From Escherichia coli (GTDB lineage: Bacteria > Pseudomonadota > Gammaproteobacteria > Enterobacterales > Enterobacteriaceae): a stretch of 64,000 bases of DNA. The position numbers and the translations under genes were made by a program. The stretch lies in assembly GCF_029227855.1 (NCBI RefSeq), contig NZ_CP074356.1. The stretch is one strand, 5' to 3'. Below the pieces are notes generated by a model that was not told where the DNA came from, did not search any database, and worked only from the letters and a program-made list of their open reading frames with translations. Positions 8,463 to 18,940 of the stretch are shown here, piece by piece; position 1 is the first letter of the stretch, and every line of letters begins with the position of its first letter.

Positions 8463-9620
8463 TTATTTCAGTTTGGTCTGGAAAAATTGTTCGAACTTCG
8501 CGAAAGGTATTTTTCCGGCCACGTTATCGTACAGGTCCACGTGATTTGCCCCTGGTACCACCACCAACTCTTTGTCTTTACTGCCAACCGCCTTGTAAGC
8601 ATCTTCAGCAAAATAGCGTGAATGTGCTTTCTCACCGGTCACAATCAGCGTCGGAATGGTGATTTCACTGGCGTAGCTCAACAGCGGCATATTCATAAAT
8701 GACAGCGGCATCGTTGCCGTCCACGCCCCGGTAGAGTTAACGGAACGTTCGTGGAAGCCGCGCGGCATGCGATAGTAGTCAAAGAACTCTTTCAGTACCG
8801 GATGAGGATTTGCCGGCAGCGTTTCTGGCAGAATGCGCTCGCCCGCACTGACCTTGCCGTTGCTGTCGACATTAATATCATGACCACCGTGAGCGAACGT
8901 TCCGCTCTGCGCATCCTTCCAGCGCTGTTCATTCAGATATTGCAGAACAGCACGACGGTCGGCGGTAGAATAACGGTCTTTGCCATCCCCCACACCATGG
9001 CCCATCGCCCGGCTCATGTCATACATCACGCTGGTAGCTACCGCTTTAACGCGGGTATCCATCGCCGCGTCGTTCAGCGCCATGCCGCCCCAGCCACAAA
9101 TACCGAGCAGCCCGATACGGTTGCGATCTACCTCTTTTTGCAGCCCTAAGAAATCCACTGCCGCGCTGAAATCTTCAGTGTTGATATCCGGTGAGGCGAC
9201 GTTTCGCGGATAGCCGCCGCTTTCCCCGGTGTAAGAAGGATCGAACGCCAGGGTAACAAACCCTCGTTCCGCCAGCGTCTGCGCATACAGGCCGCTGGAT
9301 TGCTCTTTCACCGCGCCAAATGACCCACTGACCGCAATCGCCGCCAGCTTGCGATCGCCACGGTCTTTAGGCAGGTAAAGATCGCCCACTAAGGTGATGC
9401 CATATCGGTTCGGGAACGAGACTTTACGGTGATCGACTTTCTGGCTCTCGGCGAACGTTTTATCCCATTTATCTGTCATGGACACAGGGGCATTAGGATT
9501 GGTTGAATCAGCATAACTCATTGTCGTGACTCCACTTAATGATGCGAAAAGCAGCATGGTCGGCATCGCGGTTTTTAGCGTGCGGGTGAAGGCTTTCATA
9601 AAAATCCCCATAAAAAACAA
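8463..9620 (-). CDS. Secreted alpha/beta-fold hydrolase; alternative start at 9599 (MKAF...)
   Basis: 385 aa; N-terminal signal peptide; nucleophile-elbow-like motif GICGWGG; upstream of the MFS gene on the same strand. Confidence 0.55.
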   Translation of the reverse strand: MFFMGIFMKAFTRTLKTAMPTMLLFASLSGVTTMSYADSTNPNAPVSMTDKWDKTFAESQKVDHRKVSFPNRYGITLVGDLYLPKDRGDRKLAAIAVSGSFGAVKEQSSGLYAQTLAERGFVTLAFDPSYTGESGGYPRNVASPDINTEDFSAAVDFLGLQKEVDRNRIGLLGICGWGGMALNDAAMDTRVKAVATSVMYDMSRAMGHGVGDGKDRYSTADRRAVLQYLNEQRWKDAQSGTFAHGGHDINVDSNGKVSAGERILPETLPANPHPVLKEFFDYYRMPRGFHERSVNSTGAWTATMPLSFMNMPLLSYASEITIPTLIVTGEKAHSRYFAEDAYKAVGSKDKELVVVPGANHVDLYDNVAGKIPFAKFEQFFQTKLK

Positions 9621-11103: not shown

Positions 11104-12024
11104 TTACGCCAGAACCCTCTCTAGCTTATTCACCGCCGCCACATACTTCGCCGGATTTTTATCTTTAAGCACCGCCAGATTGCGTTGCTTCCAGCGAATA
11201 GCCGGAAGATGCTGAATTTCAGGATAGCGATACCGCGACCAGTCAGGGCTGTTTTGCTTAAAACTGAGCAAGAACTCGCGATCCAGATCCGTAAGATGTG
11301 ACTTCAACGCCTGCGGCAGCAAAGTCGTTACTGACAGAAGCGATTCCAGCGACGTTTCCTGTTGCGTCATCCCTGAAAATTCCTGCGCGTACAACGTGGC
11401 GATCCGCTCTGTATCCCAGTTTGGAGCCAGCAACTCGGCGATGGGGCGGGGATGGCCTGCCAGATAACAAAGAAAACCGTCAAAGATCTCCCGCATCAGT
11501 CCCGGTTTCTCCAGCATATTCAGCACATCAAACAGATCGCGCGGGTGCTGACGATCAAGCGCAGCGCAGATTTTACCGCCATAAAGATCCGCCAGCGAGA
11601 CGACACTCATGGTGGTGAAGCCATACTCCATTTCCACACGTTCGCACACAGGCATTTCTGCCGGAGGCAACAACAGCCCGCGCCAGACCGGGCTAACCTC
11701 GATCTTAATCTTTGCATCAGCGGTATTCACAATGATGCGCTTTTCATCCGCTTTATTTTCCTGCCGAATCGCGGTGATCCCCGGTCTGCCGTTCAGCGAT
11801 GCAGTAATCCTCTTCAAAGCGTCGTTGATAGCCGCCAAATCAGTATCGCGATCCGCAAAGCTCTTGTACGCCAGATCAATATCCACCGACAGACGGGGAA
11901 AATCCTGCACAAACAAATTGATTGCGGTGCCGCCTTTCAACGCGAAACAGGACTCCTTCGCCACATACGGCAGAGCGGCCATCAACAGTTTGACCTGCCG
12001 GGCATAGCTATCACGCAGATCCAT
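11104..12024 (-). CDS. abiEii: AbiEii-type nucleotidyltransferase toxin (DUF1814 family)
   Basis: 306 aa; NTase motif GGTAINLF...RLSVDIDL; 14-nt overlap with upstream partner. Confidence 0.7.
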   Translation of the reverse strand: MDLRDSYARQVKLLMAALPYVAKESCFALKGGTAINLFVQDFPRLSVDIDLAYKSFADRDTDLAAINDALKRITASLNGRPGITAIRQENKADEKRIIVNTADAKIKIEVSPVWRGLLLPPAEMPVCERVEMEYGFTTMSVVSLADLYGGKICAALDRQHPRDLFDVLNMLEKPGLMREIFDGFLCYLAGHPRPIAELLAPNWDTERIATLYAQEFSGMTQQETSLESLLSVTTLLPQALKSHLTDLDREFLLSFKQNSPDWSRYRYPEIQHLPAIRWKQRNLAVLKDKNPAKYVAAVNKLERVLA

Positions 12025-12814
12025 CTTCGACTCCTTCCGGTTTAAATGCGCGTGGAACAGTAATTTGATAATCCGGCTCCAGCCAGCCGCCGGGTATGAT
12101 TTGCCGCTTTCCCGTACCTGTTTCTATACCGCTTTGATCAATATACTGAAAATAAGGGTGTCCATTACGCCGGGCAAGGTAAAGCATCACCCGGTTGGTT
12201 TTAACCGAATGGCTGGCGCGAAGCAGTGCCTGCAATTTGCGTGGGCTGAGAAGATTCAACCCCTGAAACAGAGCATCGGCATGTTCGAACGAGATTAACG
12301 AAGGAACGCCGCAGGCGATCTCATACGCGGCCAGTTCCGGAACACTGCCTGCTAACTGGCGGTCGCCAATTTTCAGTTCCGTAGTAAATGGCGTTACATC
12401 AGCGGTAAGGCCTGACGTATACAGCGTGACAAACGTTGCGGATTGTTCAAAGGCAGAAAACCATCCCGGCAGTTTGACGTAAGCCGGAAGCGCGAGCCAG
12501 ACCTGCGGCTTACCCTGTTCGGTATAGTGCGCATGACCCTGAAGCGCAAGGCTGGTTAGCCCCGCCACCCGAACAGGCTTTTCCCACTGCGATTGCAGGC
12601 AGTAAACCGCATCCACCCAATCCGGTTCACGACCCGTCCGGCAGTATACGCCGTGAGCGATCCGCCTGAGCCAGCCATTCTTCACATAGAGATAAGAGAG
12701 CTTACGATCTATGCCGTTGCGGGTAAGCCATGACTGGAGCAGCACCTGGCCGGGTAGCGTGTGCTGCATCAGCCAGTTTAGATAGTTTGGCAACTGTCGC
12801 CTCTGAATAGACAT
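12011..12814 (-). CDS. abiEi: AbiEi-type antitoxin / transcriptional regulator
   Basis: 267 aa; sits immediately upstream of and overlapping the NTase gene, the usual AbiE arrangement. Confidence 0.6.
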   Translation of the reverse strand: MSIQRRQLPNYLNWLMQHTLPGQVLLQSWLTRNGIDRKLSYLYVKNGWLRRIAHGVYCRTGREPDWVDAVYCLQSQWEKPVRVAGLTSLALQGHAHYTEQGKPQVWLALPAYVKLPGWFSAFEQSATFVTLYTSGLTADVTPFTTELKIGDRQLAGSVPELAAYEIACGVPSLISFEHADALFQGLNLLSPRKLQALLRASHSVKTNRVMLYLARRNGHPYFQYIDQSGIETGTGKRQIIPGGWLEPDYQITVPRAFKPEGVEDGSA

Positions 12815-13108: not shown

Positions 13109-14884
13109 ATGACATATCAGGCAATTTTCACTGGCTGGGATGATCTGACGATTGAAGACCTTCTGGTCGCTTACCGGAAAGCAAAAGCCGATAGCTTCTT
13201 TGAGAATACATTTCCTGTTGCTATCAAATTTGCCGAGTATGAGCAGGAATTACTTGAAAACCTGCAAAAACTCTTAGATCTTTTGCAGAGCGAAGATGGA
13301 TTCAGTAGCAATAAGAAGTTGATTGGCAAATTTCGTTTGTTACCGAAAAAATTAACCACAAAGAAAAAACATGAATCCCAAAATGGACACGTCCACTTTT
13401 CTAATCCTAAACGAGCAGCCGACCATTTATTTAATAATTTTGATCTGATACCAGAGTTTCGTATTATTGGTGACTTCCCGGTTGATAGTCACATTATCTC
13501 TGCACTATGGATTAACATGGTCGGGCATAAATTTGATGCCAGCTTAGATAACTGTTGCTATGGCGCGCGGCTAAAGCGTATTCGTAATGATGAATTATTT
13601 AGCGATGAGCAGGATAATCCATTCCATATCAGTGCCGTGGGTTCTTTTAGCCCCTACTTCCAGCCCTACCAAAAATGGCGTGGTGATGGCTTAAAAGCTA
13701 TACGTGACGAGTTGGAAAAAGATCGTGACATTATCGCCGCCTCACTGGATTTAAAAAGTTACTATCATTTTATTGATCCACTGGCTATAACCTCTGATGA
13801 TCTCTATAACACACTAAACATAAAACTGACTGAGGATGAAAAAGCGTTTACTGCACAGTTAGCAGTATTCTTAAAGCACTGGTCTGACGGCGCAGCGGCA
13901 TTTGGAAAGAAAATAGCGTACAAAACACCTGTTATTAATGGTGGTCTGGTCATTGGATTAACAGCCAGTCGGATCATTTCAAATATATTGCTACACCATT
14001 GGGATAAATTAGTCATTGAAAAACTATCACCAATTCACTACGGTCGTTATGTCGATGATATGTTCCTTGTAATACGCGATACAGGGACAATTACTAATAA
14101 TCACGAATTTATGTTATTGCTGCAAGATAGGCTTGGCAATGATTGCGTTTATTTGAAAAACGAGCAAAAACAAATATGGCAAATACAGCAGGGCGAGCAT
14201 TTCCAGGGTAAGACCACCATCCAGTTACAATCCGATAAGCAAAAACTTTTCGTGCTTCAAGGGAGGGCTGGAATAGACCTGCTCGACAGTATCGAAAAGG
14301 AGATCTACGAGCTTTCTAGTGAACACCGCTTGATGCCTTCACCGGATCAACTGGAACACTCCACCGCAGCTAAAGTCCTTTCCGCTGCCGGTAGTGTAGG
14401 TGAAAATGCCGATACTCTGCGCCGTGCGGATGGATTAACCATTCGTCGTTTGGGCTGGTCACTGCAATTACGCTACGTTGAAACACTGGCACGAGATCTG
14501 CCTCCAAGTGAATGGAAAGAACAGCGGGAAGAGTTTTATCAGTTTGCCTACAACCATATTCTTAGGGCTGATAATCTATTTGCACATTTTAGTTATCTGC
14601 CAAGGCTGCTTGGCTTTGCTATCAGTATGAATGAATGGCAGCACGCGGAAAAAATTGTACTTAAAGCTTACGAATCCATCAACCTGTTGGCATCGGTGAT
14701 TACTTCAGGTAAGGAAGTGAATATAAATGGTTGCAAAACTCGAGCAGTAAATGATCTTTGGCGCTGTATAAAAGGCACATTAAGCTGGCTATTTGTTGAT
14801 GCAGCGACACGATATTACAGTCCTGACAGATTATTTCTTGATAAACGTTCAAAGAAAGAAGAGTGCCTTGCGGATACATTTTAA
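13109..14884 (+). CDS. Reverse transcriptase (UG/Abi-type defence RT); likely the N-terminal part of an RT-nitrilase fusion interrupted at a T4 tract
   Basis: 591 aa; RT motifs in order: FRLLPKK (motif 1), LDLKSYYHFID (A), GGLVIGLTASRIISNIL (B'), YGRYVDDMFLV (C, YxDD); stop codon TAA begins inside TTTT at 14879-14882. Confidence 0.8.
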   Translation: MTYQAIFTGWDDLTIEDLLVAYRKAKADSFFENTFPVAIKFAEYEQELLENLQKLLDLLQSEDGFSSNKKLIGKFRLLPKKLTTKKKHESQNGHVHFSNPKRAADHLFNNFDLIPEFRIIGDFPVDSHIISALWINMVGHKFDASLDNCCYGARLKRIRNDELFSDEQDNPFHISAVGSFSPYFQPYQKWRGDGLKAIRDELEKDRDIIAASLDLKSYYHFIDPLAITSDDLYNTLNIKLTEDEKAFTAQLAVFLKHWSDGAAAFGKKIAYKTPVINGGLVIGLTASRIISNILLHHWDKLVIEKLSPIHYGRYVDDMFLVIRDTGTITNNHEFMLLLQDRLGNDCVYLKNEQKQIWQIQQGEHFQGKTTIQLQSDKQKLFVLQGRAGIDLLDSIEKEIYELSSEHRLMPSPDQLEHSTAAKVLSAAGSVGENADTLRRADGLTIRRLGWSLQLRYVETLARDLPPSEWKEQREEFYQFAYNHILRADNLFAHFSYLPRLLGFAISMNEWQHAEKIVLKAYESINLLASVITSGKEVNINGCKTRAVNDLWRCIKGTLSWLFVDAATRYYSPDRLFLDKRSKKEECLADTF

Positions 14885-16316
14885 TCATATTTCACAAAGT
14901 CTGACGAATCTAAAGGATTTACTGGATCTTCGCTTTGATTCAGCAGATTTTTATTTAAAAGCGCCATTGGTAGCTCGAGCTGATTTAGCAAAGGAACCTT
15001 ATAAACAGATCGTAAAGAGTCAGTCGGCAGAAAAACTTGTTAATCAGCGTGATAGTAAAAAAGAAGTTAAAATACTGAAATTAATGAGCGACTCATCGCT
15101 TATTGATATTGACGTTATTAAGCTATTTTTGAAATCAACCAAGAATACCCGACTGGAAAAAGTGGCTAAAGGAAATCGTAAGAACGAAAGTTACCTACCT
15201 TACATTTTCCCTACACGTCCTTTAACACCCGCTGAAATATCAGAACTGGCCCCCGAATGTGTTGGATTACCCTCCACATCCGACAAAAAACCAGATGAGA
15301 GACCGTCCACCATTTGGGCAAAATATACTCAAGCATTACGCGGAGTATGGATCAAACCGACGTTGCTAGCATCGGAGCAGGACTCAGATGAAGCGACAAA
15401 AAAAGCTCGGCCTAAGAAATTCATTCATATTGGCACAGACAGGAAACATAAAGTTGTCGTTGCGCTAACCAGCATTAAAACAGAGGAGGACGACTGGGCT
15501 AAAATGGCCTGCAATAAATCTAACTTGTCCCGTTCAAGGTACCAGCGGATTTCTGAACTGGTTAATGCAACATTGAAACTATCTCCTAAACCTGATTATG
15601 TTTTATTCCCTGAGCTTTCAATCCCGTTACGCTGGGTTAACAGTATTGCTGATCGTTTGAGTTCGGCGGGTATCAGTCTAATTGCGGGAACAGAATACCG
15701 CCACTTAGACGATAATCAACTGAAGAGTGAGGCCGTACTTGTCCTTTCAGATAACAGACTCGGCTATCCAGCGAGTGTCAAAATATGGCAACCCAAGCTG
15801 GAACCCGCCGTAGGTGAAGATGAGGCATTATTTTCAACTTATGGTAAGTCTTGGGATTCGACACTTAATGTTAAACAACGTAAGCCGGTATATATTCATC
15901 ACGGCGTCAATTTTGGCGTTATGATTTGCTCTGAACTCCAGAATAGTAAAGCGAGGATCCGTTTTCAGGGCGCACTCGATGCATTAATGGTATTGAGCTG
16001 GAATAAAGATCTAGATACGTTTGCATCGTTGATTGAATCAGCAGCGCTGGATATTCATGCCTATACTATTTTAGTGAATAACCGAAAATACGGCGATAGT
16101 CGCGTACGTTCCCCGGCAAAAGAACCCTTTATGCGTGATATTGCTCGTGTGAAGGGCGGTGATAATGACTTTGTGGTCGCTGCAACGCTGGATATCGACT
16201 CGTTAAGGGCATTTCAGAGCAGGGCAAAACGCTGGCCTAAAGGCGGCGATAAATTCAAACCGTTACCTGAAGGATTCCAGTTGGCAAAGAACCGCAAAAA
16301 GCTACCGCCAAAATAA
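14793..16316 (+). CDS. Nitrilase / CN-hydrolase domain protein; probable C-terminal part of the RT-nitrilase protein (frame +1 relative to the RT ORF)
   Basis: 507 aa as called (TTG start, no convincing RBS); nitrilase-like triad context YVLFPELSIP (Glu), VKIWQPK (Lys), GVMICSELQN (Cys); overlaps RT ORF by 92 nt. Confidence 0.75.
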   Translation: MLMQRHDITVLTDYFLINVQRKKSALRIHFNHISQSLTNLKDLLDLRFDSADFYLKAPLVARADLAKEPYKQIVKSQSAEKLVNQRDSKKEVKILKLMSDSSLIDIDVIKLFLKSTKNTRLEKVAKGNRKNESYLPYIFPTRPLTPAEISELAPECVGLPSTSDKKPDERPSTIWAKYTQALRGVWIKPTLLASEQDSDEATKKARPKKFIHIGTDRKHKVVVALTSIKTEEDDWAKMACNKSNLSRSRYQRISELVNATLKLSPKPDYVLFPELSIPLRWVNSIADRLSSAGISLIAGTEYRHLDDNQLKSEAVLVLSDNRLGYPASVKIWQPKLEPAVGEDEALFSTYGKSWDSTLNVKQRKPVYIHHGVNFGVMICSELQNSKARIRFQGALDALMVLSWNKDLDTFASLIESAALDIHAYTILVNNRKYGDSRVRSPAKEPFMRDIARVKGGDNDFVVAATLDIDSLRAFQSRAKRWPKGGDKFKPLPEGFQLAKNRKKLPPK

Positions 16317-16478
16317 GAAACTGATTTTCGCTATTAATAATCAGGGTATTTTTGCGTGAGATGTCGGTAAACATGATGTAGCCCTTGCCACTCATGACCA
16401 ATCGCAGTATCTTTCTCCCGCGCCTGCAAAATCAGGCGTCGGGATTAGCCTCCTGAAGAAATCTTATCGGCGACACAT

Positions 16479-16500
16479 GACGCGCCAGCGTCTTTTTTTG
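16479..16500 (+). terminator. Possible intrinsic terminator downstream of the nitrilase ORF
   Basis: Short GC hairpin GACGC-GCCA-GCGTC followed by T7. Confidence 0.3.
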
Positions 16501-16662
16501 TGTTGTTCGCACGGTTACATCTCAATGGTGGGCCGGGCGGGGGCGTCGCAAGACGCGCCAGTGTCCGATAAGGCTGGTAAGGCTAACCCTGCCCGGTTCC
16601 ACCACCCGCGAGATTAGCCTCTCCGGTGGTGGCTTGAACACCCACTTATCGGAGGTTGCCCT

Positions 16663-17133
16663 ATGGCTACAATCCTCACCACTGACAGCGATTTACTCGA
16701 TCTATTGACCGTCCCCTTCAATGCCACCACGGATTTCACTGTCCTTGCTGACTACTGCGCCCGCTTTGCCGAAACCCTGATTGAAACCGACGATCCAGCG
16801 CTACGACTGGCGCTCTGCGGGCGGCTTCACGCGGCTCTTGCGCTACTGCAACCCACACTACACGACCCCATCCCACCGCATCTTACCGAAAGCCTGACCG
16901 TGGATACCCTTCCCGCCACACCAGAGCACTTTATTTCCGAACCTGATTCCTTGTGCGAATACTGCCTCGCACTACTCCAGCTTCTGCTGGAACGTCCGGC
17001 GGAACCAAAAATGGAGCAAACCCTGACCGGGCTGCTGTGTGAGCTGGTCTGGTATTTCACGGAAGGACTCAAAGCCCCACGCTGGCTGCGTACCGCCGAC
17101 GGCGTAAAATTTATCAGCGAGGTGGCCGCATGA
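16663..17133 (+). CDS. Hypothetical protein, no recognisable domain
   Basis: 156 aa ORF with a good RBS (GGAGG); stop overlaps the start of the Ner-like fragment. Confidence 0.5.
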
Positions 17134-17270
17134 TGCAACAGGACTGGCATTCCGCCGACATTATTGCGGTGCTGAAAAAGCGGGGAACGCCTCTGGCGGC
17201 ACAGAGAAAAACTCATTGCGGAAGCGCTGTAAATATCGCCAGAAATCATCTGGCCTTCAAGGTACTTTGA
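17130..17270 (+). pseudogene. Ner/Nlp-like DNA-binding protein gene, internally deleted and frameshifted
   Basis: N-terminus [24 protein letters not shown] is Ner/Nlp-like; similarity then breaks, and a second Ner-like stretch (REKLIAEAL) appears in another frame. Confidence 0.5.
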
Positions 17271-17311
17271 TAGCAAAGGCAAGCAGGCTGGTTCAGTCCA
17301 GTGTTTCTCTT

Positions 17312-17410
17312 CTTGCATTTTCAGAAATGGGAGGCTGGGAGTCTATCGAAATGGTTCGTCGATATGCTCACCTCGCGCCTAATCACCTTACCGAACACGC
17401 ACGGCAAATA
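17312..17410 (+). pseudogene. C-terminal remnant of a tyrosine integrase gene
   Basis: Peptide [30 protein letters not shown] matches the conserved C-terminal region around the catalytic Tyr (RYAHL) of phage integrases; no upstream integrase sequence present. Confidence 0.55.
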
Positions 17411-17496
17411 GACTCAGTCCTGAACCCATCGGTCCCAAATTTGTCCCAGTCAAAAAATAAGGAAGGTACTAATGATGTGTAACTTATTGATTTTAA

Positions 17497-17572
17497 TGGT
17501 GCCGATAAGAGGAGTCGAACCTCCGACCTTCGCATTACGAATGCGCTGCTCTACCAACTGAGCTATATCGGC
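17497..17572 (-). tRNA. thrW: tRNA-Thr, anticodon CGU
   Basis: 76-nt cloverleaf GCCGATATAGCTCAGTTGGTAGAGCAGCGCATTCGTAATGCGAAGGTCGGAGGTTCGACTCCTCTTATCGGCACCA with encoded CCA; anticodon loop CATTCGTAATG. Confidence 0.9.
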
Positions 17573-17686
17573 CCTGAAAGGACATGTTCACGAACGTGAA
17601 TCACGGTGGACAAGGTTAAAACTAACCGGGCGATGCGTCAATGGCCTTGTGAATCAAATGGCTACTTTTGCATCACCCGGTTTTAT

Positions 17687-18940
17687 TTACGCACGAATGG
17701 TGTAATCACCAATGCCGATCCACTTGTAAGTGGTCAGTGCTTCCAGCCCCATTGGGCCACGCGCGTGGAGTTTTTGTGTGCTTACCGCCACTTCCGCACC
17801 CAGTCCAAACTGGCCGCCGTCGGTAAAACGCGTAGAGGCGTTAACGTAAACAGCGGACGAATCCACTTCGTTAACAAAACGCTGGGCGTTGCGCATATCG
17901 CGGGTCAGGATCGCATCGGAGTGTTGTGTGCCGTGTTCACGAATATGGGCGATGGCATCGTCAAGATCGCTGACGATTTTGACGTTCAAATCTAATGACA
18001 GAAACTCATCGTCATACTCTTCGGCTTTAACAGCCACCACCTTCGCGGGGCCTGCCTGCAACTGCGCCAGCGCAGCTACATCTGCGTGTAATGTCACGCC
18101 GCTTTCCGCCATTTGCTTGCTTAATGCGGGCAGGAAGCTATCGGCGATGTTTTTATTTACCAGCAACGTTTCTACCGTATTACATGTGCTCGGACGCTGA
18201 GTTTTCGCGTTGACAATTACTTTCAGGGCTTCAGCGATCTCTGCACTTTCATCAACGTAAATATGGCATACGCCTATACCGCCTGTGATCACCGGGATTG
18301 TCGACTGTTCGCGGCACAGCTTATGCAGGCCAGCGCCACCACGCGGGATCAGCATGTCGATGTATTTATCCATACGCAGCATTTCACTGACCAGCGCGCG
18401 GTCAGGATTATCAATCGCCTGTACTGCGCCTGCCGGTAAATCGCAGGATTTCAGGGCGTCCTGAATCACCGCCACCGTTGCAGCGTTAGTGCGACAGGTT
18501 TCTTTGCCACCACGCAGGATCACTGCGTTACCGGTTTTCAGGCACAGCGAAGCGACATCAACCGTCACGTTCGGGCGAGCTTCATAAATCACGCCAATCA
18601 CCCCCAGCGGTACGCGACGACGCTCCAGACGCAGACCGCTGTCCAGCACACCACCATCAATCACCTGCCCCACCGGATCGGCGAGGTTGCACACCTGGCG
18701 CACATCATCGGCAATGCCTTTCAGCCGTGCGGGCGTCAGTGCCAGACGGTCAAGCATCGCTTCGCTAAGGCCATTGGCACGCGCGTCAGCAACATCCTGG
18801 GCGTTAGCGTTGAGGATGATTTCGCTTTGTGCTTCCAGTTCATCGGCGATTTTTTCCAGCACGCGATTTTTTTCGCGACTGGAGAGTTGCGCTAATTTAT
18901 ACGAGGCTTGCTTCGCGGCAATGCCCATTTGTTCCAGCAT
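17687..18940 (-). CDS. proA: Gamma-glutamyl phosphate reductase
   Basis: 417 aa; aldehyde dehydrogenase-family catalytic Cys region; conserved proBA operon. Confidence 0.9.

Follow-up and report, generated by a model that had tools for sequence, protein, structure and literature searches.

The thrW locus and its island

The DNA analysed here, a stretch of 64,000 nt that we call the window, belongs to the Escherichia coli chromosome at the proBA-thrW locus. Its single tRNA gene is thrW, a tRNA-Thr(CGU) at 17497..17572 on the minus strand (located by ARAGORN; 71 bits against the Rfam tRNA model), and proA and proB come after thrW on the same strand. According to a review, thrW is one of the most used tRNA integration sites in E. 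coli (PMC7545054). Next to it the window carries a genomic island, a cargo variant of the island type found at thrW in ST131 strains, and the tRNA-proximal end of this island is occupied by two gene remnants: a Ner-like pseudogene and the last part of a phage integrase gene.

The island carries genes recognized by PADLOC: AbiEii (11104-12024; 385 bits) and AbiEi (12011-12814; 266 bits) on the minus strand, and a UG5 RT-nitrilase defence gene on the plus strand (13109-16316; the intact copy scores 1034 bits against RT_UG5-nitrilase). AR_0067 and 042 have an intact RT-nitrilase gene (1069 aa). The copy in the window has lost 2 nt from a run of T near 14878, which divides it into two open reading frames; the frameshift may reflect a genuine inactivation or an error in reading the homopolymer. 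The left border of the island is its junction with a fragment of ykgR; this junction was also considered as a tRNA core, and the weak resemblance was judged to be due to chance.

A P1/P4-type C4 immunity cassette made of RNA elements (16407-16609) lies directly upstream of a gene for a 156-aa protein. Two of its elements, both on the plus strand, exceed the gathering scores of their Rfam models and place the cassette in this class: a C4-type antisense RNA gene (16521..16609; 71.1 bits against a gathering score of 45, covering the full model, 1-87) and an isrK-like RNA (16420-16498; 68.8 bits against 50). The c4 a1/b1 target element that overlaps the latter (16407-16459, plus strand) reaches 43.8 bits with the c4-a1b1 model, just under the gathering score of 46.7; together, the isrK/a1b1 part opens the cassette, which precedes an operon. 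The public PGAP annotation places an "ash family protein" ORF here (16453-16617), which overlaps the C4 RNA, scores 23.1 bits against Pfam Phage_ASH (below the cut-off) and may be spurious.

The first gene of the operon is the intact 156-aa gene (16663..17133, plus strand), whose stop codon overlaps the start codon of the Ner-like gene (ATGA). Pfam and PADLOC gave no match for this gene, and phage genomes yielded one match only, to a 1.4-kb fragment record; in related islands it is always paired with a Ner-like gene.

A Ner-like pseudogene with an internal deletion

The Ner/Nlp family (Pfam HTH_35) includes Ner of phage Mu and Nlp/SfsB of E. coli. In the window, an ORF of 46 codons (17130-17270) matches the HTH_35 profile at positions 1-20 only (E 2.6e-5). 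Alignment to intact relatives (L005 12001-12222 and L011 12731-12946, from the islands at other tRNA genes described below) reveals a longer remnant: the N-terminal 24 codons (17130..17200, plus strand) are followed by a gap, 65 nt being missing between 17200 and 17201, and downstream of this deletion the gene resumes in the +1 frame (17201..17265, plus strand) and, past an in-frame TAA at 17230-17232, runs on to IWPSRY (17248-17265), the C-terminal motif of the family. Both ends of a Ner-type gene survive, and homology extends across the HTH_35 domain once the fragments are spliced: the spliced pieces match profile positions 1-20 and 42-66 with 53.4 bits (E 2.6e-14; cut-off 25), as against 112 bits for an intact Ner relative.

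Because profile positions 21-41 are the ones missing, the 65-nt deletion took exactly the DNA-binding helix-turn-helix. Compared with the Ner/Nlp family, the pseudogene keeps the N- and C-terminal motifs, including ...IWPSRY, but has lost the helix-turn-helix, has a shifted frame and has gained the stop codon at 17230, so that an uninterrupted Ner frame with a helix-turn-helix is absent from this place. PGAP annotates 17130-17229 as a "helix-turn-helix domain-containing protein", frameshifted and incomplete.

An integrase remnant in the geometry of a phage attachment site

A deletion junction of 12 nt (17266..17277) leads from the 3' end of the Ner-like pseudogene to the first integrase-homologous base. 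The integrase homology opens at 17278/17279, which corresponds to nt 951 of the 1155-nt gene of an integrase allele that we call allele X; we denote the junction Ner'|int'. What remains of the integrase gene is its last 68 codons (17279-17482, with the stop codon at 17480-17482), which tblastn aligns with SfII Int residues 321-387 at 86.6% identity (E 9.6e-34); the identity is the same, 86.6%, to the C-termini of the SfI and SfIV integrases, and falls to 83.6% for SfV and 74.6% for P22. Relative to these integrases the window keeps residues 321-387 only, and the first 15 codons come from another allele. Complete catalytic and arm-/core-binding domains are absent, with 68 of 387 residues left and the HDLRHTW box upstream of the breakpoint; the catalytic-tyrosine motif RRYAHL is retained in the SfII-type segment of the remnant (see below). 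The Pfam PF00589 match covers profile positions 137-171/172 with a score of 23.6, under the cut-off of 27.1, and PGAP lists 17279-17482 as an "integrase, missing N-terminus", immediately before the tRNA.

The integrase stop codon is separated from the tRNA 3' end by a spacer of 14 nt (17483..17496), as in phage attP. In the attP of both SfII and SfV, an identical 14-nt spacer comes after the int stop codon and leads into 46 nt identical to the thrW 3' end, and the full-length int of the intact thrW prophages in CH4799 and DEC5E likewise ends 14 nt from the tRNA. The position of the remnant relative to the att core (stop codon, 14-nt spacer, 46-nt thrW 3' block) is the native phage geometry: the spacer and the 46-nt block are common to the window and the SfI/SfII/SfIV/SfV/P22 phages, and in both int reads toward the tRNA. 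This native spacing in phages and intact prophages shows that the fragment is an attL-side stump, left in its native position by a lambdoid prophage. Phages of the SfII/SfV type integrate at thrW beside proA, and a second phage can integrate in tandem at the attL of a resident thrW prophage (PMC3306764).

Within its last 60 nt, int has paired repeats that change with the allele: GTCCCA occurs twice in SfII, SfV and P22-like phages and GGCACAA twice in allele X. The window has the two GTCCCA direct repeats, 11 nt apart (17432..17448, plus strand). Lying inside the coding sequence, the paired GTCCCA/GGCACAA repeats are candidate P'-arm Int-binding sites. A role of the stump as the terminator of thrW was considered and dropped, there being no terminator-like site for thrW on the minus strand of the stump.

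The first-pass annotation, made from the letters alone, had described this stretch as a mosaic of gene fragments, in which about 25 codons of a Ner/Nlp-like protein were followed, after a frame break, by the last ~35 codons of a tyrosine integrase ending 15 nt from the tRNA. The mosaic stands, both pieces being pseudogene remnants by Pfam, tblastn and PGAP, and both similarities are well above chance (about 1e-33 for the integrase by tblastn; 2.6e-14 for Pfam HTH_35). Its boundaries have shifted. The Ner similarity holds for 24 codons against HTH_35, but what survives is a whole gene with a 65-nt internal deletion, not an N-terminus alone; the C-terminus of a tyrosine integrase is confirmed by its 86.6% identity to SfII Int, but it is twice as long as supposed, with 68 codons at 17279-17482, and 14 nt, not 15, lie between 17482 and 17497.

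This arrangement is widespread. Many complete genomes, AR_0067 among them, match the region 16600-17700 with 100% identity, and 793 genomes cover at least 80% of its length; the narrower interval 17130-17496 is covered to at least 80% in 259 genomes. A further comparison gave 256 genomes of the window type, at 99% identity or more, and 539 within the ST131-type range of 90-95%. The same Ner'|int' junction occurs in about 800 of 5,426 complete E. coli genomes, a figure made up of these 256 window-type and 539 ST131-type-range genomes and supported by the fact that, among the matches listed, both classes cross the junction. The thrW-adjacent stretch is ordinary genomic debris, a known kind of scar whose pseudogenes are already flagged in public annotation.

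Two integrase alleles in one scar

The integrase remnant was scored at the sites that differ between the SfII-type integrase and allele X, the latter being intact in the O55:H7 strain DEC5E. Its first segment (17278..17323, 46 nt, plus strand) belongs to the older allele X, as 15 of the 17 informative sites in 17284-17323 are X-type; the remaining segment (17324..17482, plus strand), 159 nt including the stop codon, is SfII-type, with 65 of 66 informative sites in 17326-17496. Compared with an intact SfII-type prophage from IMG/VR (L022), the window has 19 mismatches within 17284-17323 and 5 in the following 377 nt, corresponding to an identity of 59% on one side of the switch point at 17323/17324 and 98.7% on the other. 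The 98.7% tract covers the 159-nt int segment, the spacer and the 46-nt tRNA 3' block.

Allele X is represented by the DEC5E prophage (L015 4051-5205), whose copy is intact (384 aa; 120 bits against Pfam Phage_integrase) and has GGCACAA repeats at the positions of the window's GTCCCA. This allele is the source type not only of the 46 nt at the 5' end of the window's scar, but also of the entire right-hand scar of the ST131-type island (92.6% identity) and of a 55-nt scar at the far flank of the thrW element in K-12.

The 3' block of thrW (17497-17542) is the phage-supplied att core, the same 46-nt block as in the attP of SfII and SfV. In the window it shows a compensatory change in the T-stem, GAGG..CCTC as against TAGG..CCTA in K-12, ST131, SfII and SfV, and an exact 45-mer of this variant block was found in 18 stretches from 16 viral contigs. 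In L022 the identical variant T-stem adjoins a full SfII-type int, and the 3' half of the window's thrW appears to be phage-donated. These alignments are most simply read as recombination between an older X-type stump and the int of an SfII-type phage, which would also have brought the tRNA 3' half. In strain p4A, the stumps on the left and on the right of the island have X/SfII switch points that differ from that of the window; since the switch points differ in these two further stumps, such X/SfII exchanges recur.

The ST131-type relative and its flanking repeat

The genomes p4A and MB1341 (the latter ST131) carry an island variant at thrW with hsdRMS in place of the RT gene, and with the same Ner deletion, stop codon and Ner'|int' junction as the window. 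GI-thrW of the ST131 strain EC958 encodes the type I restriction-modification system EcoMIII (PMC4659465), and the p4A island would correspond to this GI-thrW. The ST131-type GI-thrW and the island in the window have AbiEii/AbiEi, the ash/C4 region and the 156-aa gene (92% nucleotide identity) in common at the same tRNA gene, as well as the Ner lesions (98% identity) and the Ner'|int' junction. By contrast, the window has the UG5 RT-nitrilase where the ST131 type has hsdRMS (EcoMIII), and is thus without the type I restriction-modification system; and its scar is an X/SfII chimera, whereas the ST131-type scar is X-type throughout by overall type, with a short SfII-type patch within the otherwise X-type right scar of p4A (L002; paired repeats at 9303-9320). 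The far end of the p4A island, moreover, contains an integrase pseudogene, a 45-nt thrW' repeat and a second integrase stump, and the window lacks all three, the junction to the ykgR fragment replacing the far-end integrase pseudogene and the thrW' repeat. The dead Ner region (17134-17277) is 97.9% identical between the window and L002, above the 156-aa gene (92.1%) and the ash/C4 region (84.6%); recombination has probably made the backbone a mosaic around the exchanged cargo.

In p4A, a direct repeat of about 265 bp, made up of the stump, the spacer and the 3' 45 nt of thrW, flanks the ST131-type island (L006 8641-8898 on the left, L002 9149-9412 on the right). The left stump starts at int nt 955 and the right one at nt 951, 4 nt apart. 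The left copy is the conserved flank of B2 strains, in which a yagU-side junction leads into a stump from int nt 955; this junction is present in 1,121 genomes and occurs also beside the vat island. Site-specific integration, a Campbell-type homologous insertion, and tandem copies followed by deletion were considered as sources of the 951/955 match, and each needs a coincidence.

Just upstream of the island integrase pseudogene in p4A, beside the thrW' repeat, two CAAGTACGC repeats stand 12 nt apart (L006 9030-9050), and these are possible arm sites of the ST131-type island's integrase. An island with a full phage-type attP was rejected, as the left thrW' flank of p4A has the two CAAGTACGC copies and no phage-type repeats; so was an assignment of the ST131-type island integrase as an orthologue of IntF, to which its identity is only ~27%.

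Intact relatives and mobility

The 156-aa/Ner module is intact in islands at the pheV and asn tRNA genes. In four of these stretches (L011, L009, L010 and L005) the order is tRNA, P4-type int, Integrase_1 protein, Ner, 156-aa gene and AbiE-type cargo; the P4-type int reads away from the tRNA, a gap lies between the Integrase_1-family protein and Ner, and the cargo is variable and often AbiE-like. None of the 5,426 E. coli genomes has a thrW island with an intact Ner gene and the downstream module, the closest intact copy (82.5%) being at pheV. The homologues that K-12 yagN and ykgV might have provided for the 156-aa gene and Ner proved to be unrelated.

Apart from the remnant at 17279-17479, tblastn with five integrase types (SfII Int, allele-X Int, K-12 IntF, a P4-type Int and an Integrase_1-type protein) detected no integrase elsewhere in the 64-kb window. 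A second copy of the thrW core is likewise absent from the window, at up to 3 mismatches in 25 nt and by blastn-short. With no integrase and no attR, the island is no longer movable by site-specific recombination, a conclusion that both searches support and that agrees with the expectation in the first-pass annotation of an island probably immobile for want of an intact integrase. The comparison with intact thrW-associated islands that it had also proposed found no intact copy at thrW itself, but the layout could be taken from the pheV/asn relatives. No protein function is plausible for the two remnants, whose residual role would be that of an attL-like site (tRNA core plus phage P' arm) and of homology for recombination with thrW phages that arrive later.

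Origin of the scar

We consider it probable, with good confidence, that the thrW-adjacent stretch is the decayed tRNA-proximal end of a small thrW defence island, welded to the attL-side stump of lambdoid prophages. In phages of the SfI/SfII/SfV/P22 group, attP lies right after int, and integration sets the int stop codon 14 nt from thrW, with the integrating phage supplying the last 46 nt of the tRNA. The ancestral island at thrW would have consisted of cargo, C4-isrK cassette, 156-aa gene, Ner-like gene and a recombination module; since no thrW island with intact Ner and module occurs in the collection, this structure before the deletion is drawn by analogy from the pheV/asn islands. An allele-X phage would then have integrated at thrW, and a deletion that began shortly beyond the Ner stop codon and reached int nt 951 would have taken the tRNA-proximal module together with nearly the whole prophage. 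The Ner gene is further damaged by the loss of 65 nt, which coded for its helix-turn-helix, and by a new stop codon. As the lesions and the junction are common to two island variants about 8-10% apart, they are old. Later, an SfII-type int gene would have recombined with the 205-nt scar between 17323 and 17324, leaving the chimera observed today; this exchange would have replaced the 3' part of the scar, the spacer and the tRNA 3' block, either after an integration with deletion of the prophage or by allelic replacement. Counting against this scheme is the far-end (pseudo)integrase of the ST131-type island beside thrW', which is at odds with the pheV/asn layout and implies that the island's past was more composite, and the proposed sequence of events explains the 951/955 match only as a coincidence.

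The route of the last exchange is the point at which another account has some weight. Allelic replacement from a lysogenic donor, through transduction or conjugation, may have brought in the scar's SfII-type part together with the variant tRNA block, with one crossover inside the 205-nt scar and one in thrW-proA and with no phage integration in this lineage. Such a replacement yields exactly the same chimera, and the SfII-type patch in the p4A right scar resembles a conversion tract, not a deletion product; set against this, tandem integration at the thrW attL is documented (PMC3306764), which makes the in-situ route at least as easy. We regard allelic replacement as the less probable route, though a credible one, and it would alter only the way in which the SfII-type sequence came in, not the nature of the feature. 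A further departure from the preferred reading would be to see the scar as a working cis element or recombination substrate of thrW, the ~265-bp unit being an attL-like site with a P' arm, on which the Int/Xis of a helper phage would move the integrase-less island in trans (with the left copy), or which would act as a homologous "eviction pad". The direct repeat of ~265 bp with the same truncation point on both sides of the ST131-type island speaks for such an element, as do the allele-specific paired repeats, which are kept even in the 55-nt K-12 scar, and at least three independent X/SfII recombinants. Yet a left copy is missing from the window, the sequence beside the left thrW' copy showed no P arm of phage type, the repeats are only candidate Int sites, and deletions from the far side are expected to leave the tRNA-nearest sequence in any case; we hold a working element to be unlikely.

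It would also be conceivable that the island once had an SfV-type integrase of its own, of which an internal deletion left this fragment, given that the fragment is contiguous with island genes and that the junction is common to both island variants. Related islands, however, rely on an Integrase_1 protein and on a P4-type int that reads away from the tRNA, a different integrase occupies the far end of the ST131-type island, and the fragment is 98.7% identical to the int of an intact lambdoid prophage, beside xis and phage genes. On these alignments the piece derives from lambdoid phages and not from the island's own integrase, and an origin from the latter is very unlikely. The shortness of each piece, and nothing further, might suggest chance similarity or an assembly artefact; with E values of 1e-33 for the integrase and 2.6e-14 for the spliced Ner gene, and with the identical sequence in hundreds of independent complete genomes, we give this a negligible probability.

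Significance

The importance of the locus is limited: it offers a clean, datable example of how scars build up at a tRNA integration hotspot. A prophage-integrase stump left at such a site is homology for the later exchange of phage integrase sequence, and even of the 3' half of the tRNA. For programs that predict islands and prophages, integrase fragments adjacent to tRNA genes should not be taken as the island's own recombinase. The island with AbiE and the UG5 RT-nitrilase is fixed in place and can spread only via homologous recombination of its flanks. If the eviction-pad variant were true, the stump unit would remove newly integrated thrW prophages and swap the tRNA 3' half.

Further stumps at the thrW hotspot

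CP4-6 of K-12 occupies the same thrW hotspot, with an integrase at its far end beside a 45-nt thrW' repeat and a short X-type scar, but its gene content is unrelated to that of the island in the window and it has no integrase stump next to the full thrW. In the K-12 scar, 55 nt of X-type int are left together with the spacer, on the side of the far-end thrW' repeat of CP4-6 that faces the chromosome; in this far flank (L008, reverse strand) the scar ends just upstream of the first paired repeat. In E300010, about 160 nt of SfII-type int are fused to a truncated SDR gene. With stumps at several thrW loci, remnants of phage integrases are a general feature of this hotspot. In LR-06, other DNA adjoins an intact SfII-type integrase that has 48 nt of thrW 3' sequence (L004 6174-6285); the same interval is annotated as a 112-nt "tRNA-Ser", after which another site-specific integrase follows, and the site may be a hybrid att away from proA.
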